From: Candidatus Bathyarchaeota archaeon
GTDB lineage: Archaea; Thermoproteota; Bathyarchaeia; Bathyarchaeales; Bathycorpusculaceae
Reading direction: 5' to 3'
NCBI GenBank assembly: GCA_963811105.1
Contig: CAWEPZ010000011.1
Span: forward strand, 1,280,001 to 1,344,000
DNA: 64,000 nucleotides
Shown: piece by piece, positions 24,652 through 41,884 of the stretch
Numbering within the stretch: position 1 is the first letter of the stretch
Layout: the number at the start of each line of letters is the position of its first letter
Position numbers and translations under genes: made by a program
The notes under the pieces: generated by a model
Told to the model about the DNA's origin: nothing
Database searches by the model: none
What the model saw: the letters and a program-made list of their open reading frames with translations, nothing else

Positions 24652-26292
24652 TTGGCATATTTAACTCAAACCCAAAGTGGTCAACCTGTACTCATTCTGA
24701 AGGAGGGGACCTCTCGAAGCAGAGGGAAAGAAGCCCAGAGAAACAATATAATGGCCGCACGAGTAATTGGCGAAGTACTCAAAACAACCTTAGGCCCAAA
24801 GGGCATGGACAAAATGCTCATCGACAGCCTAGGCGACATAACAATAACAAACGACGGCGCTGCAATCCTAAAAGAAATAGACGTCGAGCACCCAGCAGCA
24901 AAAATGATGGTTGAAATCGCCAAGACACAAGACGACATGGTGGGCGACGGAACAACAACCGCCGTGGTGTTGGCCAGTGAACTTCTCAAGAAAGCTGAAG
25001 AATTATTGGATCAGAACATTCACCCAATCATACTTGTCAGTGGATACCGCAAGGCATCTCAAAAAGCAATCGAAATCATAGAGAAAATCGCGGTGCCCAT
25101 CGACGTGGAAGATCAAAAAACAATGATGAAAGTCGCCTTGACGTCCATGGGAAGTAAAGCCGTGGGTGGTGCTAAAGAGCACTTTGCAGAAATCGCCATA
25201 GAAGCTGTAAAGCAGATATCCGAGAAACGTGGAGACAAGACAATAGCAGACATAGATAACATACAGCTGGTGAAGAAGACGGGAAAAAGCCTCATCGAGA
25301 CGCAACTCGTCAGAGGCATAATCGTTGACAAAGAAGTCGTCCATCCAGCGATGCCCCGAAAAAAAGAAAACGCGAAAATCGCACTTTTAGATTCTGCATT
25401 GGAAATTGAGAAAACCGAAATGAGCGCCGAAATACGCATACGCGATCCGAACCAAATGAAAGCTTTCCTCGACCAAGAGGACAGCATGCTCAAAGACATG
25501 GTGACCAAGATCAAAGCTTCAGGCGCCGCTGTTGTGTTCTGCCAGAAAGGATTAGACGACATGGTTCAACACTACCTATCTAAAGAAGGAATAATGGCTG
25601 CCAGACGTCTCAAGGAGTCAGACATGGAGAAACTCGCAAGAGCAACAGGCGGAAGAGTTACCTCCAATTTGAACGATTTGAAGACGACAGACTTAGGTTT
25701 TGCCGGCTTGGTCGAAGAGCGCAAGATCGGCGACGACAAAATGATCTTCGTTGAAAAATGCAAAGATCCTCACTCAGTAGCCATACTGATACGAGCAGGG
25801 CTTGAACGAATGGTGGATGAAGCTGAAAGAGCAATTATCGACGCGCTTTCAGTTGTTTCAGATGTTGTTGAAAACAGCAAAATCGTCGCAGGCGGAGGAG
25901 CCGCAGAAATCGAAGTTGCAAAAGAACTGCGCAAATACGCCAACAAAGTCGGCGGAAGAGAACAATTAGCCGTTGAAGCATTCGCAGATGCAATGGAAGT
26001 AATCCCACGTACACTCGCAGAAAACGCTGGGCTAGATCCAATAGATGTACTAGCGGAACTAAGATCAGCACACGACAAAGAAACCGGCAAATACATGGGC
26101 ATAAACGTTTTCACGGGAAAAGTGCAGAACAGCATCGACAACGGCGTAATCGAACCAATCGCCGTTAAAGAACAAGCAATCAAATCCGCAGCAGAATCAG
26201 CAGCCATGATACTACGCATTGACGATGTCATAACATCCAAAGCGCCAAAAGGCGGACCAGCCGGTCGGAATGCCCGGCGGTCCCGAAGGTGA
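24652..26292 (+). CDS. ths: Thermosome (group II chaperonin) subunit; tail apparently frameshifted
   Basis: [35 protein letters not shown]; TTG start. Confidence 0.95.
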
Positions 26293-26454
26293 AGAATAAA
26301 AATCGCCCAATTCTTTAAAAAATAACCGTTGTGCGTGTTTAAAAAGATCTAGCCCTGTTTAGGGGCTATGGATGAAAAAGTTACCTTGAATATTAACCCA
26401 GTTAATAGTGGTTTTTTTTGAAAGTAGGATCTTTGTAATTGTTGTTAAGGGGTG

Positions 26455-28122
26455 TTAATATTCTGGTGGCATGCCGCCGTAGCCACCGCCTGGCATTCCG
26501 CCAGGAGGCATGCGTGGAGCTTTCATCTTTCCAGAGGCGATGACATCATCGATCCTCAGTATCATTGTGGCCGCTTCGTTGGCTGACTTGATTGTCTGTT
26601 TCTTAACAGCTAAGGGTTCGTAGACTTCTAGGTCTTTCATATCTCTGATTTTTCCTTCCAAAACGTTGACACCTGCCCATTTTTCGCCCTTCTCATGGCG
26701 GGTTCTGAGCTCTAATAGAAAATCTATAGGGTCAAGGCCTGCGTTTTCGCCCAATGTTAATGGCACAATTTCCATGGCTTCGCCGAAGCTTCGGATGGCA
26801 AGTTGTTCTCTGCCTGGTAGCGTTTCAGCATAGCTTCTTAGTGCTTTAGCGATTTCCATTTCTGGAGCTCCCCCTCCCGCAACGATCTTGGGTTCCTGAA
26901 CTACGTCTCGGACTACGCATAAAGCATCGTGAAGTGATCGTTCAGCCTCATCAACAAAGCGTTTATCCGCACCTCGTATGAGAATAGCTACTGCATGGGG
27001 GTTTTTGCATCCTTCGATGAAGACCATCTTGTCGTTGCCGATCTTCCTCTCCTCAACGATTTCTGCAAAGCCTAGGTCGCTTTTTAAGAGGCTTTCTATG
27101 TTAATAACAGGCTTTCCGCCGGTGGCTTTTGATAGTTTCTTCATATCCGACTCTTTGACTCGTTGTACGGCTAAGACTCCTTTCCTAGCCAAGAAGTGCT
27201 TGACCATGTCATCTATGCCTTTCTGGCACATAACGACGTTGGCACTTGAGGAAACTATCTTTTCAACCATTGTCTTAAGCATTTTCTCTTCTTCTTGTAG
27301 GAAAGATTGTATCTGTTCTGGACGTTCAATGTTGATTTTAGCGTCGAACTCGGTCTTTTCAATCTCAAGTGCACTTTCCAATAATGCTATGTTTGCTTTT
27401 TCCACCCGTTTAGGCATGTCTGAGTGCACAACTTCCTTGTCAATAACTAATCCCTCGATGAGTTTGGTTTCAGTCATGGATTCGCCTGGCTTTTTCTCCA
27501 CCATAATATCGTCTAAGTCTACTGTGTAGTTTTCTCCAACTTTTTTGGCTACATGTAAAACGGCATTAACTACTATGTCTGCAAGTTGTTCTTTGTTCGT
27601 AGCCACCAGCTTACTGGCCATAGAGGTTGCCGCAATCTTTACCAAAAACTCTTTTCCTGTAGGTTTAACGGAAAACGCGATTTTTTCAAGGGTTTCAAGA
27701 GCTTTATCGGCTGCTTTGCTGTATCCTTCGACAATTAGGATGGGGTGTATGCCCTTGTTTATCAAGTCTTCAGCTTTTCCTAAGAGTTCGCCGGCAACTA
27801 TCACCGATGTGGTGGTTCCGTCTCCCACTTCCGCGTCTTGGGTCTTAGCTACTTCAACCATCATTTTAGCAGCTGGATGGTCAATATCCATCTTATCAAG
27901 GATAGTCCGTCCATCACTGGTAATGATTACATCGCCAGAACTATCCACCAACATCTTATCCATGCCTTTGGGGCCTAACGAACTTTTTATGGCTTCCGCG
28001 ATTGTTTTTGCTGCCATAATGTTGTTGCGTTGGACATCCCTGCCCTTAGATCGTCCAGATCCTTCCCTCATAATTAGAACAGGCACGCCACCTGTTTGCG
28101 AAGACAAAAAATATTCCTCCAT
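26455..28122 (-). CDS. ths: Thermosome (group II chaperonin) subunit, second paralog
   Basis: [25 protein letters not shown]-rich tail. Confidence 0.95.
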   Translation of the reverse strand: MEEYFLSSQTGGVPVLIMREGSGRSKGRDVQRNNIMAAKTIAEAIKSSLGPKGMDKMLVDSSGDVIITSDGRTILDKMDIDHPAAKMMVEVAKTQDAEVGDGTTTSVIVAGELLGKAEDLINKGIHPILIVEGYSKAADKALETLEKIAFSVKPTGKEFLVKIAATSMASKLVATNKEQLADIVVNAVLHVAKKVGENYTVDLDDIMVEKKPGESMTETKLIEGLVIDKEVVHSDMPKRVEKANIALLESALEIEKTEFDAKINIERPEQIQSFLQEEEKMLKTMVEKIVSSSANVVMCQKGIDDMVKHFLARKGVLAVQRVKESDMKKLSKATGGKPVINIESLLKSDLGFAEIVEERKIGNDKMVFIEGCKNPHAVAILIRGADKRFVDEAERSLHDALCVVRDVVQEPKIVAGGGAPEMEIAKALRSYAETLPGREQLAIRSFGEAMEIVPLTLGENAGLDPIDFLLELRTRHEKGEKWAGVNVLEGKIRDMKDLEVYEPLAVKKQTIKSANEAATMILRIDDVIASGKMKAPRMPPGGMPGGGYGGMPPEY

Positions 28123-28337
28123 ATATCACTACAAGCGTGATTCAGTTAAGGCTTTCCTAGTTTTGCTCCGAACCTAATTCTGCACTACTCTGAGTCTATT
28201 TCTAAACAACAAAGTTGCTTTCGCCATGCGTATCTTCCAGCTTTAGCAAGGCTTGACGCTGAAGTTGAAATACTGAAAATAGTTCTTGCATACGGACTTT
28301 CGCCCTAAATCAGGCTAGTAGCCTCTATTTCTCCTTC

Positions 28338-28520
28338 CTATTTTTTGGCAGGTGCTATATGATAGTTTTCGTATATTTCCGCTTGGGTAAGCCCGTAAAA
28401 CTCTGCGTATCCCTGCACGCGTGCTTTCTTGTTTTCAAGGCATTCAGGATTAATACAGATGTACTCGCCGCATACACCCTCTATTCGCTTAAGAATTTTA
28501 TCGCAAGCAGGACATTTCAT
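28338..28520 (-). CDS. Small Cys4 zinc-finger protein
   Basis: MKCPACDK...YICINPEC, 60 aa. Confidence 0.6.
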   Translation of the reverse strand: MKCPACDKILKRIEGVCGEYICINPECLENKKARVQGYAEFYGLTQAEIYENYHIAPAKK

Positions 28521-29066
28521 AATTACACCAAGGTTACTCCTATTCACAGTCATGTTGCCACGTCCATATATAGCAATTCACCAAAGTCATCGTCGGACCG
28601 TCACCATACCCGGGTGAAAACGCAGCCTAAAGCTGAAGAGCTTGCCCTACCTATTTTCCAGTGGTTTCTTGACTCTTGATGATTTTAGTTCTTAGACCCG
28701 ACCCCATTTCAGAGTGCATAAAACCTTGACTTTACAACAGAATTATGCTTGCGCTCAAATTCTTTTCTATCGGTTAGTCGCTATTTCTCACCTTTTTTCA
28801 TGCTTTCAGTACCCGTTCAATGATTGACATAACCAGTTTTCTAGGTAACTTACCCTTATCAAATAAGGGGCTATATGGACTACTTAGAATGTTTGTGATG
28901 ATTCTTTGTTACTTAGGAAAAACTGAAATGTTGATTGTGCATATTAGATAATCGGCGAGTTCTTAGTGAGTAAACCTAGACTTTTCAGCTTAGCACATGT
29001 GCACCTCGAAAGTTTAAGGTCGAAAGGAAAAATAAAAGATGAATTACAGATGGGGGAATAGAGGTT

Positions 29067-30245
29067 ATGAGTGCTTCCCAAGAGCTTGAGAAGAATGCAA
29101 CCAACTACGCGTTGGAAGCAGTACGCTTGGACAAGCAAGGCTCAAGGGGCATGGCAATAACCATGTACCAGAAATCCATAGAAAGCCTACTGCAACTTGT
29201 TAAACTCTATCCTGAATACGGCTTGAACAAAGTATACGTTCAAAAAGCGATCATCTACCAAGAACGCATAAAGGCGATACAAGGCGCCGTAGGTGTATTG
29301 CGTGATCAAACTCACGCAGAAGTTAGAAACGGCGGGAGTGAGGGTGAAACCAAAAAGAGTGGAGGCGGCAAGTCCAGTTACGAAGAACTGTTAGTCACAG
29401 AGAAGCTCAATGTGAAATGGGCGGAAGTCGTTGGACTGGACCCAGCAAAGAAGGCGGTGAAGGAGGCAATAATCTATCCTTTTCAGAGACCCGACCTGTT
29501 TCCATTAGGATGGCCACGGGGAATATTGTTCTTCGGGCCGCCAGGTTGCGGGAAAACATTGCTGGCAGCAGCTGTTGCTACGGAAATAGACGCTACTTTC
29601 GTCTCAATTGACGCGGCCTCTGTAATGTCAAAATGGCTGGGTGAAGCTGAACAGAATGTTGCACGCCTGTTTAGTCAAGTAAGAAAATCATCGTTGGAAG
29701 GAAAGCCTGCAATAGTCTTCGTCGATGAGGTTGACTCTTTGATGGGAAAACACGCAAATGAGGTAGGCGGCGAAATCCGTGTTCGCAACCAGTTCTTGAA
29801 AGAGATGGACGGTATCGTAGACAAGGGCAAGAATCTTCACGTGTACGTGATTGGAGCGACCAACAAGCCTTGGGATTTGGATTGGGCTTTTATAAGAAGA
29901 TTTCAGAAAAGAATTCTGGTCCCACTGCCTAACCGCGATACACGATTGATGATGTTCAAGCTCTATACTGCCAGTCTTCAACTTGCTCCAGATGTTAAGT
30001 TGCGGGAACTCGCGAGACTTTCAGAGGGATTCTCGGGAAGTGATATAAGGGATTTCAACCAGTCGGCACAGCTGAAACTCATCGGCGAGTTCTTTGAGTC
30101 AGGTAAAGCAAGCGACCGAAGGGTCAAGCCAAGGCCGTTGTCGATGGAGGATTTCAGGCAGATACTCGAGGAAAGAAAGCCCAGTGTATCCCCTGGCATG
30201 CTGGCGCTTTACGACAGATGGTTTGAAGCATTTAAGGCTCTCTAG
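29067..30245 (+). CDS. cdvC: MIT-domain AAA ATPase (Vps4/CdvC family)
   Basis: MIT helices (AVRLDKQG...AITMYQKSI), [32 protein letters not shown]. Confidence 0.9.
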   Translation: MSASQELEKNATNYALEAVRLDKQGSRGMAITMYQKSIESLLQLVKLYPEYGLNKVYVQKAIIYQERIKAIQGAVGVLRDQTHAEVRNGGSEGETKKSGGGKSSYEELLVTEKLNVKWAEVVGLDPAKKAVKEAIIYPFQRPDLFPLGWPRGILFFGPPGCGKTLLAAAVATEIDATFVSIDAASVMSKWLGEAEQNVARLFSQVRKSSLEGKPAIVFVDEVDSLMGKHANEVGGEIRVRNQFLKEMDGIVDKGKNLHVYVIGATNKPWDLDWAFIRRFQKRILVPLPNRDTRLMMFKLYTASLQLAPDVKLRELARLSEGFSGSDIRDFNQSAQLKLIGEFFESGKASDRRVKPRPLSMEDFRQILEERKPSVSPGMLALYDRWFEAFKAL

Positions 30246-30381
30246 AAGAAGGATGATGCTAAAAGAGTGTGTTGAAGTGTTGGGTGGATAGGTTTAGCTC
30301 GCTTCCACCAAAAGGGTTGATGCAACCTATTTTCATAAACGGAACAAATCCCAGATGAACACCCAAAACAACATCTAACGC

Positions 30382-30539
30382 AATGTAGATGCTGTTTTCC
30401 GCAATCTTGAAGAGCTGTTTGCGGAACTGGAAAAAAATTGAGCGAGAAAGACATCGCGTACTTCAAGAGCTTGAAAGAAAACGAAATAGTCAGATGCCTT
30501 AATACTCTGGGCAGGTGGATTCGCAATAATTGGGGATAA
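30382..30539 (+). pseudogene. Gene remnant (DUF6794-like)
   Basis: Frameshifted ...NLEELFAELEK/LSEKDIAYFKSL...LGRWIRNNWG*. Confidence 0.35.
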
Positions 30540-30623
30540 GGGTGAGGATCTCTTGATTTTTTTAATTTAAACCTTATAAGTGTAGTAACTATTACGATTT
30601 TTTAAAAGTGAGTTGAAAAGGAC

Positions 30624-30692
30624 ATGTTTGAGGAAGAGGAAGAAGGGGAAGAAGAGTTAACCGAAGAGGATTGGGAAGAAGAGGACTGGTAA
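30624..30692 (+). CDS. 22-aa hyper-acidic microprotein
   Basis: MFEEEEEGEEELTEEDWEEEDW*; TATA-like AAACCTTATAAG ~50 bp upstream. Confidence 0.5.
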   Translation: MFEEEEEGEEELTEEDWEEEDW

Positions 30693-31052
30693 ATATATGG
30701 AAACTATGATTGTTTGCATATTTCCATGCTTTATTTGTTCATGCCAAAATAGTCAAAAAGGCAGTTAGGCAAAAAATACATTATAAAAAGCTAATGATGC
30801 TATAGCGGTGAATGATATTGGACACGAAATATTCTTTGACGCGACCGTCTCGTCGCTTAACGTCTTCTCTTTAGTCGTTGTAGAATGGAAATCGCTGCTA
30901 AAGCTTGTTTATCCCCCTAAGAAGCCTTCTTCAAGCCAATTTTATGTATCAGAGAAAAATAGGGAACGTACGGGAAGCTTCCCTATACTGGTAACGTAAG
31001 GCTTTTGTGAAGGGTATTTAGGCATCTGCTACATTATAGGAAGAGATGTTTA

Positions 31053-31613
31053 ATGCCGAAGACTAAAGCCATAATTAAGATTCAGAACATTGTTGGCTCG
31101 GCCACTTTAAATCAGAAAGTTGACTTAAACGCGGTTGTGAATAGTTATCCAACCGCAGAATATCGTCCGGACCGGTTTCCCGGATTAGTATTTAGGCTTA
31201 AGAGACCGAAGACAGCCACGCTGATTTTTAGCTCTGGTAAAATGATTTGTACAGGAGCAAAATCAGGACAGGAATTCCGCAAAGCAATCATGAAAGTTAT
31301 TAAAGAACTGAAAATGGGCGGAATAATCATTGTTAGCAAGCCGGACTTGAAGGTTGTGAACATCGTTGCTTCTGCAAGTCTAGGCGGACAGATAGATTTG
31401 GAGAAGACAGTTTCCACGCTAAGAAAAACGATGTATGAACCAGAGCAGTTTCCAGGCTTGATCTACAGGATGGACGAGCCTAAGGTGGTCATACTGATAT
31501 TCGCAACCGGGAGCCTTGTTTGTACCGGGGCGAAGAAAGAACAAGACGTTTATGACGCAGTGCATAAGCTTCATATAATATTAGAGGAACAAAACCTCAT
31601 ATTCTACGAATAA
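31053..31613 (+). CDS. tbp: TATA-box-binding protein
   Basis: Two TBP repeats: YRPDRFPGLVFRL..LIFSSGKMICTGAK and YEPEQFPGLIYRM..LIFATGSLVCTGAK. Confidence 0.97.
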   Translation: MPKTKAIIKIQNIVGSATLNQKVDLNAVVNSYPTAEYRPDRFPGLVFRLKRPKTATLIFSSGKMICTGAKSGQEFRKAIMKVIKELKMGGIIIVSKPDLKVVNIVASASLGGQIDLEKTVSTLRKTMYEPEQFPGLIYRMDEPKVVILIFATGSLVCTGAKKEQDVYDAVHKLHIILEEQNLIFYE

Positions 31614-31734
31614 AACTTCATATGTCAATCGCCTATGGAAAACAAGGAATTATTATCTTTAATCGTTGAGTAAAATGATGTGGATAAAGCTGTTCATAAG
31701 TTTCTTGAATGTAAAAATTGTTGGGTAGAGTATT

Positions 31735-31914
31735 ATGGAAAACTTTGAGAGATTAAGTAATGAAATTCTCGTTAGAACCTGCTCCTGCGGCATCGTATTC
31801 GAAACGTATGATCCAAAAAAAGTGTACCATTCAAATAAATGTAGGGCAAGTTACGTTAGGAAAAGAAATGGAACCATGACAGCCCAAAGAAGGAAACTAA
31901 AGCAAAAGAAATAG
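31735..31914 (+). CDS. 59-aa basic Zn-finger-like microprotein
   Basis: ...RTCSCGIVFETYDPKKVYHSNKCRASYVRKR...; CxC..HxxxC pattern. Confidence 0.5.
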   Translation: MENFERLSNEILVRTCSCGIVFETYDPKKVYHSNKCRASYVRKRNGTMTAQRRKLKQKK

Positions 31915-31990
31915 AGGATAAAGTACTGGGCAAGGTTTAGCTGTTAATTTAGACCTTAGTTTACGCAATAACATAAGTTTAAATGAATTT

Positions 31991-32122
31991 ATGAGCAAAG
32001 GCAAAAGTGAACAGTTGAAATCTCAATACGAAAAAACCGAGGATAAAGGTTATGGCTGTAACGCATGGGCTAGTGAGACAGAGCAACCAAAAAGCCTAAA
32101 CCAAGTCACCGAGACAAACTAG
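31991..32122 (+). CDS. 43-aa hypothetical microprotein
   Basis: MSKGKSEQLKSQYEKTEDKGYGCNAWASETEQPKSLNQVTETN*. Confidence 0.3.
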   Translation: MSKGKSEQLKSQYEKTEDKGYGCNAWASETEQPKSLNQVTETN

Positions 32123-32259
32123 AATTTGAGTTTGACAAATATAGTGAATATTTAATATTAATTTATTGCTTAACTATTGCAAAAATAACAAACTTAGCTA
32201 AAAAAAAGCAATTAGTATAAACATACGAGCAATGAATATAAACATGAGAAAAGAGGTAA

Positions 32260-32400
32260 ATGAAAATGTGTCAATTAAGAGCAGGTTTAGTTAAAAACTG
32301 CCGCAGGTGCAAATCGTCTATTCGACTTAATTGTCCGATTAGAAAGAAAGTGAAAAAGAAAACTTACATAGACACCAAGAAGAAGGGCGAAAGTAAATAA
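32260..32400 (+). CDS. 46-aa basic Cys4 microprotein
   Basis: MKMCQLRAGLVKNCRRCKSSIRLNCPIRKKVKKK...; GAGGT just upstream. Confidence 0.5.
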   Translation: MKMCQLRAGLVKNCRRCKSSIRLNCPIRKKVKKKTYIDTKKKGESK

Positions 32401-32612
32401 CAACTAAGAGTGAAGCCAAATAACAACAGAGAAAAAACTGAATTAAACTAATCAGCGTATGCGCTGAAAACTAGCTTCACTTTCAGAAAATTGCCAAGTT
32501 TATATCTAAGAACGCGTCTTGACACCCTTACCGAATCACAATATGTTCTAATGATGTAGAGAGAACGGATTTACTGCTTCTATCCGAAATATGTTTAAAT
32601 GAGTGTTGAAAA

Positions 32613-34781
32613 TTGAACGAAGTTCAGCTGAAAGTTCTGGATTCCAGACAGAGAGATGTGGCAAGAGGAATCGCCAGAATAGACCAGATAACAATGCAGA
32701 AGTTAGGAGTTTTATCTGGAGACGTAATAGAGTTCTCAGGGAAGAAAAAAACGTCGGCGAGCGCTTGGCCAGCGTACTCTGAAGACCAGGATCCAAACGT
32801 TATGCGAATCGATGGGGTCTTACGTAAAAATGCTGGCGTATCAATAAACGATTTCGTTGTAGTTCGCAAGGCTGACGTTAAAAATGCCCTGAGCATAGTG
32901 CTTGCTCCTGTGGATATGCAATTGAAAGTTGACGAAGACTTTGCAAATTTTGTGAAGAACAGACTTATAGATAGGACTTTTGTTGAGGGAGACAAGACGT
33001 CCGTTATGATGCTTGGTCATTCTGTTCAGTTCACTGTTGCGAAGATGCAGCCCCAAGGAATAGTAAAGATGACCAACGATACTATATTGCAGATATTAAC
33101 TGACCCCGTTGCTGAAGCTGAAAGTGTGCCACGTATCACCTATGAGGACTTAGGAGGTTTGGAGGAGGAGATTCAACGCATAAGGGAGATGGTTGAACTT
33201 CCAATGCGGCATCCCGAGATTTTCCAGAGGCTTGGAATAGATCCTCCGAAAGGGGTTCTACTGCTTGGTCCACCCGGCTGCGGAAAGACACTCCTAGCTA
33301 GAGCAGTAGCGAATGAGTCTGACGCAAACTTCTTCTCAATAAACGGGCCTGAGATAATAAGTAAGTTCTATGGGGAGTCGGAGGCGAAGCTTCGAGAAAT
33401 ATTTCAACAGGCTCATAAAAGCGCTCCGAGCATCATACTCATAGATGAGTTGGACTCCATCGCGCCCAAACGTGAGGAGGTTACTGGTGAAGTGGAGAAA
33501 AGGGTTGTCGCTCAGCTTCTATCTCTCATGGACGGATTGACTGGTAGAGGAAATGTCATAGTAATAGGTGCAACAAACAGACCGAATGCTTTGGATCCAG
33601 CTCTCAGGAGGCCTGGGCGGTTTGACCGCGAGATAGAGATAGGGACCCCGGACAAGCGGGGGCGTCATGAAATATTGTTGATTCATAGCAGAGGTATGCC
33701 CTTAGCCCGTGATGTTGAGTTAAAGGTGCTTGCTGAGCGGACGCACGGTTACACGGGTGCTGACTTGGCTGCCCTGTGTAGAGAGGCAGCTATGAAAGCT
33801 CTACTTAGGTATCTTCCCGAGATAAATCTGAAGGAAGAGCGAATACCTCCCTGCGTCCTGGAGAAGATGGATGTTCGAATAGATGATTTCATGAGCGCCT
33901 TCAAGGAGATTACACCTACAGCTATGAGGGAGATTGCTGTGGAAGTTCCGGTTGTTCATTGGGATGAAGTGGGAGGCTTGGAGGAGGTTAAAGAGAAGTT
34001 AAAGGAGGCTGTTGAGTGGCCGCTGAAAAATCCTGAAGTCTTCAAGAGATTGGGGATTCAGCCGCCTAAAGGTATACTGTTAATAGGCCCGCCTGGGTGT
34101 GGGAAGACAATGCTGGCTAGGGCTGTTGCAACTGAGAGCGAGGCAAACTTCATTTCGATTAAGAGTCCGGAGGTTTTCTCTAAGTGGGTTGGCGAGTCTG
34201 AAAAGGCTATTCGAGAGATTTTCAGGAAGGCTAGAATGGCTTCGCCAGCGGTCATATTCTTCGATGAAGTTGACTCTCTTGTTCCAAGGAGGGAGCAGGG
34301 TTACGGTGACAACGGAGTAACTGAACGCGTCATCAGCCAGCTTTTGACAGAAATGGATGGAATAATGCCCTTAGAAGACATCATAGTTATAGCTGCGACA
34401 AATAGGCCCGATATTGTCGACTCAGCCATATTAAGGCCAGGCAGATTCGATCGGCTAATTTATGTTCCAGAACCCGACGAAGCGGCCAGGCTTGAAATCT
34501 TTAAGATTCATACGAAGAATATGCCACTACAAAATCTTGTGGACATCAAGGCGTATCGCATGACGAAAGGTTACTCTGGCGCCGATATATCATCCGTTTG
34601 CAGGGAGGCCGCCATGAACGCTTTGAGAAGAGACAGCAACGCAAAAGAGGTTGCCTTCAGCGATTTTGAGAAAGCTATACACGAAGTTCCGCCGAGCATA
34701 TCGCCAGAAATTGAGATTTGGTATAGGAGTTTTATGAATCAGGTTCGAAGGCTGCAGAAGCCTGCGCCTTTTGTAGTGTAA
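32613..34781 (+). CDS. cdc48: Cdc48/VAT AAA ATPase
   Basis: N-domain plus two AAA modules (GPPGCGKT x2, IDELD/FDEVD, RPGRFDR x2). Confidence 0.96.
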
Positions 34782-35237
34782 TTCCGGAAGGGACAGATAA
34801 ACGTGAATTTACGCTGTGAGTCGATTCAGCTTTATTAGGGTCTTCCCAAAGAAAGAGTGCGATGAATGGTTCCCCCAAATTTGGAACGCAACAGGAACCC
34901 GCCAAACAGAGAACCAGGTCGAAAGGAGAATTGCTTACTTCTCCCAGGAAATCGTAATTCGATTCGTGATGTTCTTCATTAAAAGGCGATAAAGCATTAG
35001 AAAGTAATAACCATAAGAAAGTGTAACGAACCGTGTTTTATCGGCAAAGAAATGAAATAATGTGTAAAAAAAGTTTATTAGAGCTGTACAGGTTGTGTGT
35101 ACGGCTCTTAAAAATTGGAGACTGTTTTTCGAGTTGGATGATTCAACATCAGAGGAAATCAAAAGTTCGAGAAGATCCGCATTCGAAAAGCACATTCACA
35201 CATGAATATCGTTTCGTAATTAAACTAACGGGGATAA

Positions 35238-38200
35238 ATGACTTTGACTGAAATTTCAAAAGAAGATATACATTTGTTGTTAAAATCTTTCTTCCACGAG
35301 AAAGGACTAGTTAGACAGCATCTGGATTCTTATAACGAGTTTATCGATCATGGATTGCAGGAGGTGGTGGATGAGGTTGGCGAAATCAATATTGAAGTTC
35401 CTGAATGTCCGTACAAGGTGAAGCTTGGGCAGGTTTGGGTGATAGATCCTCAATCAAGGATAACAGGGCCATACGTGGTAGAAGTAGATGGCGGTAAACA
35501 CGAAATTTACCCCATGGAAGCTAGACTCAGGAACCTTGCATACGCCGTGCCAGTGGCGCTTGAAATGACGCCCATAATAGATGGGAGAGAACAGGACACC
35601 GAACTTGTCTACATCGGCAACATTCCAGTCATGCTGAAATCGAAACTTTGCTTCTTATCCCAGCTTTCAACGGAGGAACTTATTGCTGCTGGAGAAGACC
35701 CTGATGACCAAGGCGGATACTTTGTTGTTAACGGGTCTGAACGCGTTATCATTGCCATGGAGGATCTGGCACCTAATCGCGTACTTGTTGACATTGACGA
35801 GAAAGGAACCTCACCAGTTTTTCAAGCAAAAATTTTCTCAACCACAGTCGGCTTCAGGGCTAGAATCGAACTTAAACTCAAATCGGACGATGCCATCTAC
35901 GTCACCATGCCAGGATTACCAACAGAAATCCCGTTCGTTGTCATAATGCGTGCGTTAAGCTTAGAAAAAGACAAAGATATTGCAGAAGCGGTCTCACTTG
36001 ATAGCGAAATGCAAAGCCACTTGGCCGCTTCATTTGAAAAAGCCATCGGTGTAGACACACCCGCTGACGCAATCCTATTCATTGGTAACCGTGTAGCTCA
36101 CGGGCAGGTTGAAGAATACCGCTTACTGAAAGCTGAGACTGCCCTTGACAAAAATTTCCTGCCCCACCTTGGCAGAAGCGACGCGAACCGAAAGGAAAAA
36201 GCAATTTTCCTAGGCGAAATGGCATACAGAGTTATACAGTTGAAAACAGGTAGACGGCAACCTGATGATAAAGATCATTTCAAGAATAAACGTTTGCGTC
36301 TCGGAGGTCCGCTTCTTGCAGACCTTTTCCGTGTCTCATTTAGAAACTTGACGAGAGACATGAAATACCAGCTTGAACGGATAGGCGTTAAAGGTCCAAT
36401 CATTAATGTTTCAGCGGCTGTTCGCTCTGGCATTATAACAGAACGTTTTCAGCATGCGTTGGCAACGGGCAACTGGGGAAGAGGCAGAGTCGGCATCACT
36501 CAGCTTTTAGACAGAACCAACTTCATCTCTACCCTAAGCCACTTACGCAGGCTTCAGTCGCCCCTGAGCAGAAGCCAACCTAACTTTGAAGCCAGAGACT
36601 TGCACCCAACCCATTGGGGACGCTTATGCCCTAACGAGACGCCTGAAGGCTCCAATTGTGGCTTAGTCAAAAACCTAGCATTGTCAGCTTCCATAGCAGT
36701 CGGTGTAAACCCTGACAAAATTAAGCAATTACTTTTTGAAATGGGTGCTGTTCCGGCAGGTGAAGCCAGCCGTGATTTACGTATTTCGGGAGCCAAAGTT
36801 TTCTTGGACGGAAACATCATTGCCTATTGCAATAACCCAATAGAAATTGTGAAGTCTTTCCGGGAAAAAAGGCGAGCTGGAGAAATCTCAACGGAGGCAA
36901 ACGTAACATATTTCTCAAAAATGCAAACTGAAACCGAAGAAGTTCATGCTAACTGTGACGAAGGCAGGGTAAGACGCCCACTCATAATTGTTGAGAATGG
37001 CGCTTCAAAACTTCAATCTAAACATTTTGAAAAGATTGGTTTAGGCGAGTGGACGTGGGAAGACGTGGTTAAGAACGGTTTGATTGAGTATTTAGACGCT
37101 GAAGAAGAGGAAAACGCTTTCATCGCCTTAACCTTCGACAAAATTGAGCCTCAAAACACTCATGTTGAAATAGCTACTTACACGATTCTCGGCATATGCG
37201 CTTCAACAATCCCCTATCCAGAACACAACCAGTCGCCTCGTAACTCGTACCAAGCAGCTATGGCTAAGCAAGCGTTGGGCGTTTATTGCACCAACTTCCA
37301 TCACCGAGTTGATTCACGCTCGCACATACTCCACTACCCGCAAGTCCCAATGGTTGAAACGGAATTAATGGAAGTCATGGGCTACAAGCAACGTCCTACA
37401 GGACAAAATTGCGTCGTCGCGGTGCTCAGCTTCGAAGGCTATAACATGGAAGACGCTCTAATATTCAATAAAGCATCAGTAGATCGTGGCTTAGCCAGAT
37501 CCACATTCTACCGCATTTACGAAGCTGAATGCCGCCAGTATCTAGGCGGATTAAAAGACAAGTTTACCGTTCCAGAACCTGGAACCCGTGGTTACCGCGG
37601 CGAACAATATTACAGGCTTTTGGAACCTGATGGAATAATCAGTTTAGAATCGCAAGTGGTCGGCGGAGATGTTTTAATCGGAAGAATTAGCCCGCCCAGA
37701 TTTCTTGAAGAATATAAAGAATTTGAAGTTAAAGGTCCCTCGATGCGTGATACTTCAGTTGACATGCGTCCCTCAGAAACAGGCGTCGTCGACAAGATCT
37801 TCATAACTCAGTCTGGAGGAGGAAGCAAACTCGTAAAGGTAAGAATCCGCGATCAACGTGTTCCAGAGTTAGGCGACAAGTTTGCCTCTAGACACGGTCA
37901 AAAAGGAGTAATCGGTCTAATCGTACCGCAAGAAGATTTGCCCTTCACGGATGAAGGAATTGTACCTGACCTAATAATCAATCCACATGCCATCCCCTCA
38001 AGAATGACCATCGGTCAATTCATCGAGTCACTCGCTGGAAAAGCTGCTTCGGCGAGAGGTAAACCAGCAAATGGTACACCATTTTCCAACGAAGGACCCG
38101 ACGAAATACGCAAGAGCCTTGTAAAACTCGGCTTTAGTCACACTGGAGGCGAAGTCTTCTATAGCGGTACAACAGGCGAAAAATTCGTTGCAGATGTATT

Positions 38201-38609
38201 CGTCGGCGTAGTTTACTACCAGAAACTTCACCACATGGTTGCGGACAAGATTCACGCAAGAGCCAGAGGTCAAGTACAGATGTTAACACGGCAACCAACT
38301 GAAGGCAGAGCTAGAGGTGGCGGTCTCAGGTTCGGAGAAATGGAGCGAGATTGCCTAATTGGACACGGCGCAGCCATGCTGCTCAGCGACAGAATGCTGG
38401 AAGAGTCAGACAAGTACACGCTTTACATCTGCGAGAACTGTGGGGAAATAGCCTACTATGATATGAAACAGAGGCGGTATGTGTGTAAAATCTGCGACGA
38501 AAAAGCCAAAGTTTCCCCAGTAATCGTCTCTTACGCTTTTAAGCTTCTGTTGCAGGAGCTCAAGAGTCTGTGTATAACTCCCAAATTAAGACTAAAGGAG
38601 AAGGCATAA
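35238..38609 (+). CDS. rpoB: RNA polymerase subunit B (Rpo2), full length
   Basis: QHLDSYN, ETPEGSNCGL, GYNMEDA, GDKFASRHGQKG, NPHAIPSRMT, KLHHMVADK, RFGEMERD, C-terminal Zn Cys4. Confidence 0.98.
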   Translation: MTLTEISKEDIHLLLKSFFHEKGLVRQHLDSYNEFIDHGLQEVVDEVGEINIEVPECPYKVKLGQVWVIDPQSRITGPYVVEVDGGKHEIYPMEARLRNLAYAVPVALEMTPIIDGREQDTELVYIGNIPVMLKSKLCFLSQLSTEELIAAGEDPDDQGGYFVVNGSERVIIAMEDLAPNRVLVDIDEKGTSPVFQAKIFSTTVGFRARIELKLKSDDAIYVTMPGLPTEIPFVVIMRALSLEKDKDIAEAVSLDSEMQSHLAASFEKAIGVDTPADAILFIGNRVAHGQVEEYRLLKAETALDKNFLPHLGRSDANRKEKAIFLGEMAYRVIQLKTGRRQPDDKDHFKNKRLRLGGPLLADLFRVSFRNLTRDMKYQLERIGVKGPIINVSAAVRSGIITERFQHALATGNWGRGRVGITQLLDRTNFISTLSHLRRLQSPLSRSQPNFEARDLHPTHWGRLCPNETPEGSNCGLVKNLALSASIAVGVNPDKIKQLLFEMGAVPAGEASRDLRISGAKVFLDGNIIAYCNNPIEIVKSFREKRRAGEISTEANVTYFSKMQTETEEVHANCDEGRVRRPLIIVENGASKLQSKHFEKIGLGEWTWEDVVKNGLIEYLDAEEEENAFIALTFDKIEPQNTHVEIATYTILGICASTIPYPEHNQSPRNSYQAAMAKQALGVYCTNFHHRVDSRSHILHYPQVPMVETELMEVMGYKQRPTGQNCVVAVLSFEGYNMEDALIFNKASVDRGLARSTFYRIYEAECRQYLGGLKDKFTVPEPGTRGYRGEQYYRLLEPDGIISLESQVVGGDVLIGRISPPRFLEEYKEFEVKGPSMRDTSVDMRPSETGVVDKIFITQSGGGSKLVKVRIRDQRVPELGDKFASRHGQKGVIGLIVPQEDLPFTDEGIVPDLIINPHAIPSRMTIGQFIESLAGKAASARGKPANGTPFSNEGPDEIRKSLVKLGFSHTGGEVFYSGTTGEKFVADVFVGVVYYQKLHHMVADKIHARARGQVQMLTRQPTEGRARGGGLRFGEMERDCLIGHGAAMLLSDRMLEESDKYTLYICENCGEIAYYDMKQRRYVCKICDEKAKVSPVIVSYAFKLLLQELKSLCITPKLRLKEKA

Positions 38610-38610
38610 A

Positions 38611-38715
38611 ATGGCTATAGATGAGATAACCCAGAGCTTTTGACGAAATCTCATTCGGTCTGATTTCATCGTAGACCTCCGCAAACAATCAGTCGTGGAA
38701 ATCCTAACACCCGAT
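38611..38715 (+). pseudogene. rpoA1: RNA polymerase subunit A' (Rpo1N) N-terminal stub
   Basis: Reads MAIDEITQ/AFDEISFGLIS/VDLRKQSVVEILTPD with two frameshifts; sits in the canonical position 1 bp after rpoB, then truncates. Confidence 0.8.
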
Positions 38716-38883
38716 AGGAGTATATTGCGCTTCCCCAAAAAAAGCGTTTGGGCCTGTCGTGGTTCTTAAAATTTGAGGTATCAGGAAAAACAAAAAGTGT
38801 CAAAAACTTGTTTTTCAGGCATTTAGAGGCCCAAAACACTTGGCGCCTTAATGTTTGCCTATTGCGTGTTTCGCAAAGTATTC

Positions 38884-39171
38884 CTACTCTTTTGTAAGCA
38901 TTATTTCAATTGTTGAAACCATTCGTGCTCTGGTTTCGCCTTCTCTTGGCGGCATCTCCTCTGTTCCTATCACGATTTTATGTACTTTCAGGTCTTTTAG
39001 GAATCGATTTCTCGTTATTTCAGCTGCGTCAACAGCTGTAGTTATTGATTTTCCTCTGGCCTTTAAGGTTATATCTTTAGCATCGCTCGCCGACAAGCCT
39101 GTAATAATCGCCAAAACATAGTCCATCGGCATCTTATTTCCAACGAAAACAATTCTTGATTTTTCCGACAT
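38884..39171 (-). CDS. albA: Alba DNA/RNA-binding protein
   Basis: VFVGNKMPMDYVLA, LKARGKSITTAVDAAE, VSTIEI. Confidence 0.93.
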   Translation of the reverse strand: MSEKSRIVFVGNKMPMDYVLAIITGLSASDAKDITLKARGKSITTAVDAAEITRNRFLKDLKVHKIVIGTEEMPPREGETRARMVSTIEIMLTKE

Positions 39172-39741
39172 TTTCCATCACCATTTAATCATAACGTTAC
39201 TGCCCTATACTACGCAACTGCCCTATAAAGCGATTAAACAACAGAGCAGTCTGAAGATGTTTCAGTGTGGCTCCCTTATCCCAAAAGGTCGCCAGCCCGA
39301 AACTGGTCCGACTTGCACTGGACACTGAACGTTTGCCCAACATGTTTTTCGATGTTTTCTTGACTGTGAACGATTTTCGAGCTGATGGTTTACAAGGATT
39401 TAATTAGACTAATGGAGCCGTTTCCAAAGATGACGTCCGCGTTTTGAAGTTAGGCTGCTCTTGATAGGGGATTTGCTTAATATTTTAAACACATCCCAAT
39501 AGAATAGTAAAAACAGAATAAAAACAAAAGAAGGTTATTTTGACAGTGAAAATTTAACCGACTAAGCGGTTATGCCTGTGATTTCACAGATTGAGGTGGG
39601 TCTGCGTATTTTTGGTGTGAGGATTTCCCATACTTTGCCTTTGGTATTCATGTCTTCATCTATGAAGTTGTTGACGGATACTTCTTGCTCGATTATTAAT
39701 CGTGCACGTTTTGTTAGCTTTTCTAAATATTGGTGTGTTCT

Positions 39742-39998
39742 TTGAAGCGTGAAGAAGCAATATTAGTTTTAAAAGAGCTTTTTGAAAAATGCACTTTTCT
39801 TGATGGACGTTATTTGGCATTAATGCCAGCGGAAGCCCTACCTTAATGTCTCAAAAGTATCAAATTCTGATTAAGACCTCTCTTGACGAAGAAACAAGAA
39901 ACTGTATGCAAGATATTCTGATAAAATATCTGCTTACCATTAAAATTAAAGAAGAAAATACATTCATCATTTATCGACCAATTCAAGATAAAGAATAA
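39742..39998 (+). pseudogene. Small hypothetical protein with one frameshift
   Basis: MKREEAILVLKELFEKC...MPAEA / TLMSQKYQILIKTSLDEETRNC...IIYRP. Confidence 0.45.
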
Positions 39999-40112
39999 AG
40001 GTTGAAGGCGAAAATATATGGAAAACTCTCCAAAATCCAAGCCACAGTAAACAATCTATAGAGCAAAGTTTCGTAGTAAAGCATTAAATATGACTAGAGA
40101 TAATCACAGGTT

Positions 40113-40220
40113 ATGACTGTTCTGGGTAGCAAGTGTTTCTGTGGAGGAAACGCTAATGTTTTCGAGGGCGGCGAGCAGTTCTGTAACGACTGTTACCTGA
40201 AGAAGAAGGGCAGACGTTAA
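40113..40220 (+). CDS. 35-aa Cys4 microprotein
   Basis: MTVLGSKCFCGGNANVFEGGEQFCNDCYLKKKGRR*. Confidence 0.55.
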   Translation: MTVLGSKCFCGGNANVFEGGEQFCNDCYLKKKGRR

Positions 40221-40275
40221 ACAACTTTGAATTTCTTAGGGCGTTCATCATACAGATTAGTTGGAGATAGAATTA

Positions 40276-40404
40276 ATGTCTAAAGAATTTGTAAAAGATT
40301 GTCCTTGTCCTTACTGTGGAAGTAGCAACATTGAAAACACAGACAAAGAAATAAAATGTCTTGATTGTGGAATGGGTAAATATAAAGTTGGCAAAGGTAA
40401 ATAA
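40276..40404 (+). CDS. 42-aa zinc-ribbon microprotein (TFB-ribbon-like)
   Basis: CPYCGSSNIENTDKEIKCLDCG; GGAG upstream. Confidence 0.6.
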   Translation: MSKEFVKDCPCPYCGSSNIENTDKEIKCLDCGMGKYKVGKGK

Positions 40405-40810
40405 ATAATAATTTTGAAATAGTTATTCTCAGTGCACTCAAAACTGAATAGCGTAAATGCCTTAAAGGGAATAGCTAACAGGTGGATACCTTATGTCATT
40501 CAACAACAGTTAAACGCTAAATCCGACGGAAAATCAGCGGTTTATTGGTTAGATGGCATTCCGAAATCCGATGATGCAGAACTTAAGGAAGGCGGGTTAA
40601 AGGCTTTTTCAGGTTCTGGTATACTATCTAGTGGTAGGCTAACTTTTTCTCCCTTTTACAATTCGGGTGATGATTGATTTTTACCAAAAGAATAAAAAAC
40701 TGTGAAAACCAAATAGTTTTTCTTGAGAGGTTTTTGGTGTGTACATAGCGCCATCATCATAGAAAGGCTTAAGCCTACTTTGGAAAATAGGATACTGAGG
40801 AGCTTATGAA

Positions 40811-41320
40811 ATGGTTAACGAAAGAATTAATGAGACTAAACAAAAAATTTTAGATTGGCTTAAAGAAGAAGCTTTTTCCGCAGAAGAAAAAGCTGACCCA
40901 AACGCATTTTTCAATATACAAGCAACTAGGAATAACATGGGGGTCAACATTATCCAGGCTATTCCTCGCAATGATAGTTTCTTTGTAGTAGCAAACATAA
41001 TCACAGCTGAAGAGGAACAAACTTTCTTGAAGGGTATGGGTTCTGAGAAAAGGCTAGATTTTATTTGGGATTTGCAAATGAACCTTCTTAAGAACAATGA
41101 ACTTGGCGATTTTGCTTTTAAACCAAAAGCTCCAGAGGAAATACAAATAATAACTATCACTTCAAGGGCAATTTTTTATGATGAGTTAACAAAAGCAAAA
41201 CTCCATTTCACAATACACGTTGTTCTAAAAGCTATGGTAATGACTATGTGGATGTTGCAAAAATATGCAGGAATAGCCCTTCCGAAGATAAACCAGAAAA
41301 AGCAAGACTATTCTATGTAG
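40811..41320 (+). CDS. DUF2299-like protein
   Basis: KILDWLKEE..., FIWDLQMNLL, IFYDELTK. Confidence 0.7.
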   Translation: MVNERINETKQKILDWLKEEAFSAEEKADPNAFFNIQATRNNMGVNIIQAIPRNDSFFVVANIITAEEEQTFLKGMGSEKRLDFIWDLQMNLLKNNELGDFAFKPKAPEEIQIITITSRAIFYDELTKAKLHFTIHVVLKAMVMTMWMLQKYAGIALPKINQKKQDYSM

Positions 41321-41659
41321 TAACTTCCAGTTTTGTTTACTTTTTTCTTCTAAGGTATTGACGTGAGTTACACAGGTCGTTCAAAGGGTTCTTATGGGCT
41401 TATAATGTTTCAGCGTTTTCATGCTTAAAGTGAATCTTCGGGGAACACAGTAAAGTGATACAACATAGTCACCGAATTGCTCTTTAAGGCATCCATTTAC
41501 AAGCAAAAGACGCCGAAAATGAAGGCTTCATTGTTACGTGGAACCTTCCCTGGTGCTTTCACGGGGTTTTCGAACTTAAGCAAATTGTGCTTTTAGAATT
41601 AGCGTCTGAAATGGGTATATAAAGTCATTTTACCTTTTTAATATGACAGGTTGAATGTT

Positions 41660-41884
41660 ATGCCGAAATGTCCAAATTGTACAGCTCATATGAAAGAACC
41701 AGATAAAGAATGGAACTTTGGGCAATTTCGAGTAAAGATGTATAAGTGCACTAAATGCGGAAATCAATTTAGAGAATACTTCAAAGAAAACACTTTGAAA
41801 TTTACTTTGAGCGCACACAACGGTGGCTTGGGAAAGACCAGAGTGAGCAAAGAAACAACGGATAGACACAAGTTCTATCAATAA
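41660..41884 (+). CDS. Cren7-like zinc-ribbon protein
   Basis: MPKCPNC...PDKEWNFGQFRVKMYKCTKCGNQFREY; P-x-K-x-W and G-x-x-F-R recall Cren7. Confidence 0.6.
   Translation: MPKCPNCTAHMKEPDKEWNFGQFRVKMYKCTKCGNQFREYFKENTLKFTLSAHNGGLGKTRVSKETTDRHKFYQ

Follow-up and report, generated by a model that had tools for sequence, protein, structure and literature searches.

A cluster of six predicted small zinc-ligand proteins among paralogues of information-processing genes in a Bathyarchaeal genome

Archaea encode many small zinc-finger proteins, of which, to our knowledge, almost none has a known role. The closest described group are the zinc-finger micro-proteins of Haloferax volcanii, with a C(P)XCG signature and at most 70 amino acids (aa), which the available parts of the reports (PMC6562870, PMC10716476, PMC11241148) present as single-domain proteins with two Cys pairs, many per genome and mostly of undetermined function; several predicted Haloferax zinc fingers bind no zinc, as an available part of the last report states. 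Brz, the bop regulator of Halobacterium, is in the accessible portion of its description (PMC2253796) a small zinc-finger protein whose own gene adjoins that of its target, and is the model behind the idea that such proteins control their neighbours. For the chromatin protein Cren7, the accessible sections of Kaur et al. 2018 (PMC5906684) trace its origin to a zinc ribbon and name Bathyarchaeota as a lineage with Cys-bearing orthologues; a family extended at the C-terminus is described there as 'Cren7Znr'. Here we analyse a stretch of 64,000 nucleotides (nt) from a Candidatus Bathyarchaeota archaeon of peat soil (the window; G000:C11:1280001-1344000), in which six small Cys-rich open reading frames (ORFs), named c1 to c6, are interleaved with paralogues of information-processing genes. 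The source genome, G000, is a metagenome-assembled genome (MAG) of 3.49 Mb in 15 contigs with a completeness of 96.65% and a contamination of 4.3%. We hold with moderate confidence that the six ORFs represent six real, unrelated microprotein families (35-74 aa) with one zinc site each, and that their cluster is a set of co-inherited spare accessory copies rather than of dedicated regulators of the adjacent genes for TBP and RNA polymerase subunit B (rpoB).

The ORFs were compared by six-frame searches with 24 genomes of the same genus (congeneric) and 16 from other genera of the order, and large protein databases were searched with c6, c3, c2 and c1. Their gene models are as follows.

28338..28520 (including the stop), minus strand: c1, 60 aa from an internal ATG at 28520 (MKCPAC...) according to its homologues, not 71 aa; the longest ORF is 28338-28553.
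31735..31914, plus strand: c2, 59 aa, a CxC...HxxxC knuckle followed by a long basic C-terminal helix.
32260..32400, plus strand: c3, 46 aa, very basic, with the core GLVKNCRRCKSS; the island copy of a family with two paralogues.
40113..40220, plus strand: c4, 35 aa, CxC...CxxC with a basic end; the first gene of a c4-c5 pair.
40261..40404, plus strand: c5, 47 aa from TTG 40261 or 42 aa from ATG 40276, a CxxC...CxxC zinc ribbon with a basic tail.
41660..41884, plus strand: c6, 74 aa from ATG 41660, a start set by the homologues; the longest ORF is 41651-41884.

An earlier note on this DNA had described at least six such ORFs of 35-74 aa, each with four putative zinc ligands and several with basic tails and ribosome-binding-like motifs. 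All six were recovered where it had placed them, basic tails are present in c2, c3, c4 and c5, and GGTG, GAGGT or AGGT-like motifs lie 2-11 nt 5' of the starts of c1, c3, c4, c5 and c6; no clear motif of this kind was seen upstream of c2. The set of four ligands holds for c1, c2, c4, c5 and c6, c3 being the exception. Homologues with intact frames, a conserved Cys pattern and synonymous bias are present in related Bathyarchaeia for every one of the ORFs, with matches in 2 (c1), 6 (c2), 17 (c3), 2 (c4), 14 (c5) and 21 (c6) of the 24 congeneric genomes. The conserved ligands are C3, C6, C22 and C27 in 27/27 sequences of c1 (a fifth Cys, C17, is not conserved); H32 and C36, both invariant, plus C16 and C18 in at least 90% of 38 sequences of c2; C14, C17 and C25, invariant in 36 sequences of c3, the first Cys being present in 30/36 and the other six starting at a later Met; C8, C10, C24 and C27 in 3/3 genome copies and 22/22 metagenome copies of c4, the length of which is invariant; all four Cys in 9 sequences of c5; and C4, C7, C30 and C33 in 8 sequences of c6. 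The ratios of nonsynonymous to synonymous change (dN/dS) were 0.17-0.40 for c1 (3 usable comparisons), 0.24-0.54 for c2 (6), 0.07-0.29 for c3 (9), 0.13-0.40 for c4 (13), 0.16-0.81 for c5 (9, the high values coming from pairs with 2-3.5 synonymous changes) and 0.06-0.16 for c6 (6); these are pairwise Nei-Gojobori values against the window copy and are approximate, a few codons upstream of the starts being included. The runs were made without the fragments L022_1587, L023_1560, L001_2 and L036_3039 and the TFB or other matches L034 and L033. Because frames, ligands and dN/dS ratios below 1 are conserved across species, all six ORFs are, on this comparative evidence, real protein-coding genes under purifying selection, and the prediction of genuine small zinc-ligand proteins is upheld.

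The ORFs make up six different families, of which c3, c4 and c5 are lineage-specific knuckles or ribbons. None of c1 to c6 gave a Pfam or NCBIfam match above the curated cut-off, weak generic zinc-ribbon matches being limited to c5 and c6, and searches of PDB sequences with c6, c2, c5, c3 and c1 gave knuckle-level matches only, to C2H2 fingers and similar. The related records bear titles of Candidatus Bathyarchaeota or Bathyarchaeia MAGs, and as far as we searched the six families appear to be confined to Bathyarchaeia. Set beside the Haloferax micro-proteins, c1, c2, c4 and c5 likewise have at most 70 aa and four conserved ligands in two pairs, c6 has 74 aa, and c3 has its fourth Cys in 30/36 sequences. 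CPxC or CxxCG-type knuckles are shared with the C(P)XCG proteins by c1, c5 and c6, whereas c2, c3 and c4 have CxC or Cys3 patterns, and the genes studied here differ in that they are clustered together and with information-processing paralogues. No sequence relationship to the named haloarchaeal families was found: a single protein, a 56-aa relative of c6 described below, reached HVO_2753-type models, far below cut-off, and Brz models at E 0.014-0.05, over the knuckles only.

The ORFs are short, four of them under 60 aa, and it might be thought that some or all are chance open frames in AT-rich intergenic DNA. A loose Cys pattern (C-x(1-4)-C...[CH]-x(1-4)-C in small ORFs of 30-100 aa) is matched by 709 of the 27,041 small ORFs of G000, which lie mostly inside longer genes (208 are mostly outside ORFs of at least 150 aa). 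Counted outside such long ORFs, the 13.5-kb span that holds the six genes scores five, c3 not fitting the pattern, against a genome mean of 0.81 per 13.5 kb, and a score of at least five is reached by 0.79% of 3,295 spans. The highest-scoring spans (9-11) make up one apparent hot spot, a denser swarm at G000:C11:965-967.5 kb, which was dismissed as an artefact: a tandem repeat between two large predicted ORFs, read in antisense, yields eight Cys-rich frames of 45 aa there (965422-967533), nearly identical and spaced with a period of 219 nt, that are no microprotein genes. In all six families, however, species agree in frame, length and ligands, with dN/dS staying below 1, and no conserved antisense gene was seen opposite the homologous frames, so that we regard chance frames as extremely improbable.

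The microprotein genes were also found near each other in other genomes. Among hits at E<=1e-8 outside G000, 9 of 52 same-genome pairs from different families lie within 5 kb, versus 0.23 expected at random, a contrast that kinship of the genomes inflates. The arrangements differ: c2-c5-c1 in G021, c5-c1 and c5-c3 in G003, c6, c3 and c5 in G013 and c3-c2 in G020. The genes for TBP, c2, c3 and Cdc48 occur in that order in 6 of the 79 loci from other genomes that were fetched through c3; five of these six go on with c5 and c1 on the opposite strand, three of the five reach Alba, and Vps4 lies upstream where the locus extends far enough. The order vps4-tbp-c2-c3-cdc48-c5-c1-alba, or most of it, was recovered in six loci. 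Tight c3-c5 runs were present in eight further loci of this set, two of them continuing with c2, and in one locus c1 and Alba face c3-c5. The most recurrent neighbours of the microprotein genes are each other and the Alba paralogue; a copy ~80-95% identical to that of the window is at most 3 kb away from them in G021, G012, G013, G024 and G019, on G000:C2 and in nine c3 loci. The clusters of relatives also contain small Cys-rich ORFs of other families that are absent from the window: a 59-aa CxxC...C..HH ORF (L102, L103 and L109), a 38-aa ORF (L108:3839-3955) and a 64-aa double zinc ribbon (L109:1401-1595). In one relative an RpoP-like gene (L109:4349-4555) stands between c5 and Alba and matches RNA polymerase subunit P models end to end, at 28 bits, below cut-off; the RpoP-like gene of G000 itself (C11:1412683-1412832) is 58% identical to it.

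In the window the three leftmost microprotein genes and their large neighbours lie on a segment with the following features, which is continued to the right by a conserved flank.

28217..39870: a replaceable island of 11.65 kb with c1, a Vps4/CdvC-like ATPase, a third TBP, c2, c3, a Cdc48 paralogue, an extra rpoB and an Alba paralogue.
31053..31613, plus strand: the third, accessory TBP paralogue, directly upstream of c2.
35238..38714, plus strand: the extra, stand-alone rpoB, 1123 aa and intact.
38884..39171, minus strand: the Alba paralogue (Pfam Alba, E 8.4e-13).
40432..41320, plus strand: orf81, of no family, and a DUF2299 protein (E 3.1e-20), between c5 and c6.

These eight genes were recognised as a replaceable island because the metagenome contigs L246 and L247 match both flanks (window 27601/27887-28216 and 39871-40315/40675, 92-97% identity) and differ between them: the 11.65 kb of the window are replaced there by 1.6 kb with unrelated genes. 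Outside the island, on the conserved right flank, are c4-c5-orf81, the DUF2299 gene and c6, which lies 1.3 kb beyond the c4-c5 pair; orf81 follows c5 also in L247 (91% identity). G000 is rich in paralogues of the large genes, with 3 TBP, 3 Cdc48, 2 Vps4, 5 Alba, 6 thermosome and 2 rpoB genes. A TBP of the window type (at least 86% identity) was found in 2/24 congeners, and most congeners have two types, at ~69-77% and 61-65% identity to that of the window. The extra rpoB and the canonical one on G000:C1 share 93% identity at the aa and 82% at the nt level; the canonical copy is followed by the sole rpoA' of G000. Past the stop of the extra copy the similarity continues for ~105 nt, which correspond to the spacer behind the canonical rpoB and to the 5' end of rpoA'. 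A 25-residue remnant of rpoB is present between Cdc48 and Alba in locus L105.

The island and its surroundings also gave several side observations. Its Vps4/CdvC-like gene (window 29067-30245) has a second copy at C13:85295-86471 that aligns in two pieces overlapping by one base, which suggests a frameshift or a sequencing error; should the frameshift be real, G000 would have no intact gene of this kind apart from that in the island. A stretch of 236 nt (window 39459-39694), starting at the TATA-like TTAATATTTTAAA, is 80.6% identical to G000:C2:654397-654628 and has no open frame in common with it; a small non-coding RNA and a common promoter or leader are candidate explanations. Rfam gave no match for this stretch, and the region 27-43 kb gave one sub-threshold match only. 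Further out, the window contains ribosomal protein genes (1-12 kb) and two thermosome genes (24.6-28.1 kb) to the left of the microprotein region, and beyond it large beta-propeller proteins and an ATP-citrate-lyase/aconitase group. The thermosome genes (24652-28122) are divergently oriented, 57% identical and belong to the six paralogues of the genome.

Archaeal viruses and plasmids often encode small zinc-ribbon proteins, and the microprotein genes could be cargo of a mobile element or provirus, the island being the integrated element. Their distribution among congeners (2-21 of 24), the several copies per genome and the replacement of the 11.65-kb segment by other DNA in relatives speak for this, as do the language-model look-alikes of c2, small proteins labelled Uroviricota (score 0.91) with NinG as a lead only, and a match of c6 to phrog_10675 (E 5.5e-6) in PHROGs, where c2 gave a marginal match only. 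However, relatives in IMG/VR were confirmed for 0/57 candidates of c6 and 0/14 of c2, and for c5 that database gave weak partial ribbon matches only (23/210, at 34-61% identity). No tRNA gene was found in the window, no repeats of at least 12 nt flank the boundaries at 28216/39871, no integrase, transposase or capsid family was present among the ORFs scanned with Pfam, and the large genes of the island are close paralogues of host housekeeping genes. A mobile-element origin lacks its hallmarks here, and we rate it as very unlikely.

Two of the families may be compared with described fingers. The c1 family (consensus MKCPxCG...GE(Y/W)xCxNxxCPxNK...AEFYGxTQxEIN, the last, a conserved helix motif, varying as AEFYGxTQxEI(N/Y)) is a predicted C4 zinc ribbon; its homologues in G003 and G021 are 75-87% identical, and G000 has a paralogue on C2. 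A match in G031 (E 0.006) was dropped as the motif proved absent on inspection. In the databases the family forms 44 representative clusters which, with few exceptions, are stand-alone proteins 50-73 aa long. The finger, CPxC-x(13-16)-CxNxxC, is similar along its entire length to the C4 domain of NAD-dependent DNA ligases (DNA_ligase_ZBD, PF03119), which was matched by 19/27 family members at E<=0.1 (best E 2.8e-5, none shown above cut-off) and by c1 itself with 13.2 bits, below the cut-off of 25.8. The c1 protein differs from the ligases in being a stand-alone protein of 60 aa with the added AEFYGxTQxEIN motif and no ligase domains. The c2 family (107 database clusters) combines the motif CxCG-x13-HxxxC with a variable basic tail, and its AlphaFold2 model (predicted local distance difference test, pLDDT, 82.5) has strands at 12-15 and 21-24, forming a beta-hairpin, and a helix at 34-58. 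The spacing CxCG...F...YHSxxC presumably places it near the FCS/TRASH/NinG-type fingers (Cys-x-Cys...(C/H)-x3-Cys), to which it has no Pfam match; in the structure search the YacG and FCS-finger rows, including that of the L3MBTL2 FCS finger (Z 2.6, 39 residues, 26% identity), are within noise.

The c3 family (44-49 aa, very basic, with a strongly conserved GLVKNCRRCKSS core) gave no match in Pfam, NCBIfam or a PDB sequence search. Congeneric frames have 40-56 aa (46-49 aa in all but four matches), often in two copies; there are 42 database clusters, and among the best 80 of 134 genome stretches, which were kept, all but 2 have Bathyarchaeota or Bathyarchaeia titles. The family falls into two paralogue groups: the widespread core one is 65-82% identical to the window copy, which belongs to the other. 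In 59 clustered loci the core paralogue lies near L35Ae (47 loci) and near aIF1A (31 loci), at ~0.7-1.2 kb, and genes for a treble-clef finger and for an Ssb-like OB fold are often adjacent to it as well; the assignment of the two translation genes rests on matches to L35Ae (47.6 bits) and eIF-1A (81 bits). This setting, together with the small size, the extreme basicity and the conserved core, would fit a small ribosome- or translation-associated protein instead of a DNA or chromatin factor, with the island copy as a spare. No ribosomal protein family was matched, though, and gene order alone is weak evidence. A divergent ribosomal L40e (PF01020) was considered and discarded, as c3 showed no ribosomal match and the canonical L40e is encoded elsewhere in G000 (C2:63474). 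That c3 is such a translation-associated protein and no DNA or chromatin factor we consider rather unlikely.

The genes c4 and c5 form a pair, c5 beginning ~40-55 nt downstream of c4, and are adjacent in 9 of the 10 closest c4 loci. The c4 family was recovered from 22 metagenome loci (58-94% identity); for c5 the congeneric matches number 14/24 at E<=0.01 and 8/24 at E<=1e-8. The possibility that c5 mimics the TFB ribbon was rejected: it scores 11.8 bits on PF08271 (cut-off 29, E 0.84) and ranks 34 of 37 in G000, where the five true TFB genes score 59-67 bits.

With c6 a connection to chromatin proteins emerges. The consensus CPxC...PxKxW...YxCxxCGxxFRE is followed by a conserved 30-aa C-terminal extension, and the invariant K16, W18 and F37 align with the PxKxW and FR columns of zinc-ribbon Cren7-like proteins. 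Among the congeners, full-length copies (69-87% identity) are present in six genomes and the remaining matches are distant paralogues; in the databases c6 has relatives in 93 clusters, two of which (P0069 and P0084) have the tail replaced by a C-terminal winged helix of the TrmB/TFIIE type. One relative, of 56 aa (G000:C2:375587-375757), is the best match of G000 to Pfam Cren7 (14.8 bits, below the cut-off of 25), and three of its orthologues in other genomes score 13.3-17.1 bits. A PF11520 search of 81 Thermoproteota genomes yielded, above cut-off, canonical Cren7 and proteins of 47-63 aa with a CPKCG...CPSCG pattern; the zinc-ribbon Cren7-like proteins used for profile-profile comparison score 28-48 bits on this model. 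With hhalign, these cut-off-passing proteins were aligned to c6 with a probability of 97.3% (E 2.8e-11) and to the 56-aa relative with 99.5%, and c6 was aligned to the 56-aa relative with 98.1%. Because the profile-profile comparison joins the groups, in agreement with Kaur et al. 2018, we read c6 as a putative divergent, C-terminally extended paralogue of zinc-ribbon Cren7-like chromatin proteins. Like the zinc-ribbon forms, c6 and its 56-aa relative have the common pattern CPxC...PxKxW...(F/Y)xCxxCGxxFR; c6 differs from Cren7 in scoring below every Cren7 threshold and in missing ~11 residues of the central loop. By description, c6 also resembles Cren7Znr (PMC5906684) in having a C-terminal extension, which is conserved in its family, and its host lineage, Bathyarchaeota, is one for which Cys-bearing Cren7 is reported. 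In the order as a whole, 16 of 29 TBP loci (G000:C2:374148-375757; loci L175-L199), some of them from four other families, have the gene for the 56-aa ribbon upstream of the main TBP and in the same orientation; the spacing is in places ~105-125 nt, elsewhere there is other DNA between, and in G000 this is an unannotated 224-aa ORF.

These arrangements bear on the proposal of the earlier note that the microproteins could be accessory regulators of the neighbouring TBP and RNA polymerase. On such a view c2 and c3, for instance, would modulate the third TBP, and a ribbon such as c5 would dock on the polymerase as the N-terminal ribbon of TFB does. Part of this is supported by gene order, which ties c2-c3 and the c6 relative to TBP: a full TBP lies just upstream in 8 of 13 c2-bearing loci, TBP-c2-c3-Cdc48 recurs in six loci, and the 56-aa ribbon precedes TBP in the 16 loci mentioned. 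The winged helices of P0069 and P0084 are a further point in favour of the proposal. On the other hand, the adjacency to RNA polymerase is peculiar to G000, because two rpoB copies were found in 1/41 genomes searched (G000 only), and c5 is not TFB-like. In addition, c2 occurs beside Alba without TBP in G021, G000:C2 and G019, third-type TBP loci without c2 and c3 occur in G020 and G003, and in G000 the 224-aa ORF separates the 56-aa ribbon from the main TBP. We therefore consider it unlikely that the microproteins are dedicated regulators of these neighbours.

The reading as co-inherited spare copies has points against it as well. With respect to the genes themselves, only three Cys of c3 are strictly invariant and its fold prediction failed (pLDDT 50); for c2 none of the structural neighbours is significant (best E 0.46 in the Foldseek search of PDB, best Z 3.3 in the wide VIA search). 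Metatranscriptome contigs from one run (5% of sampled words in common, mostly 85-95% alike) cover large genes only, namely vps4, TBP, Cdc48, rpoB and Alba; none lies over the microprotein genes, which, since contigs cannot show absence, speaks neither for nor against their expression. Pfam Cren7 (PF11520, cut-off 25 bits) gives no match for c6 itself, its profile reaches a probability of 2.7% against canonical zinc-less Cren7 (hhalign), and the strong scores are due in part to common CPxC knuckles, so the Cren7 link rests on the intermediates. As to the cluster, the estimated contamination of 4.3% concerns a MAG in which the island junctions are known from assembly alone, the 79 loci fetched through c3 are a sample biased towards c3 contexts, and the related genomes are kin, so that counts of common arrangements overstate independence.

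With these points in mind, we would picture the cluster as follows. Each microprotein would be a ribbon or knuckle built around a single zinc ion; its small beta surface, together with a basic tail or helix, may bind nucleic acid or a partner protein. For c6 the most likely mode would be DNA binding in the manner of zinc-ribbon Cren7, through a sheet that bears the invariant Trp; c1 would use the DNA-ligase-type C4 finger and c2 its knuckle and basic helix; c3, presumably derived from the core gene beside L35Ae and aIF1A, may act on RNA or the ribosome. Small accessory proteins of chromatin, transcription and translation would have been duplicated along with larger neighbours, the parent of c6 standing beside the main TBP and that of c3 beside aIF1A and L35Ae, and the copies would have been kept together as a co-inherited accessory set. 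A more daring variant, which we regard as speculative and quite unlikely, is that the microproteins, the Alba paralogue, the third TBP, Cdc48 and Vps4 make up a transferable accessory information-processing cassette that moves or recombines between peat Bathyarchaeia, with the small zinc proteins as its specificity parts. If that were true, the Cren7-like ribbon (the lineage of c6 and the 56-aa protein) would work with TBP at promoters, c1, c2, c3 and c5 would be adaptors directing Alba, Cdc48 or the alternative TBP to certain nucleic-acid targets, and these large-genome archaea would possess a switchable second state of chromatin and transcription.

The findings do not overturn current understanding and add new members to known kinds of small zinc protein. 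The second intact, stand-alone rpoB in the island is unusual in archaea and is either an assembly error or a real subunit duplication. The analysis provides six families that are under selection, have defined ligands and reproducibly lie near one another and near paralogues of Alba, TBP and Cdc48, and thereby concrete candidates for binding tests from an uncultured, widespread soil lineage. If c6 and its relative beside TBP are indeed kin of zinc-ribbon Cren7, a published idea on the evolution of Cren7 would gain a pair of genes on which it can be tested.

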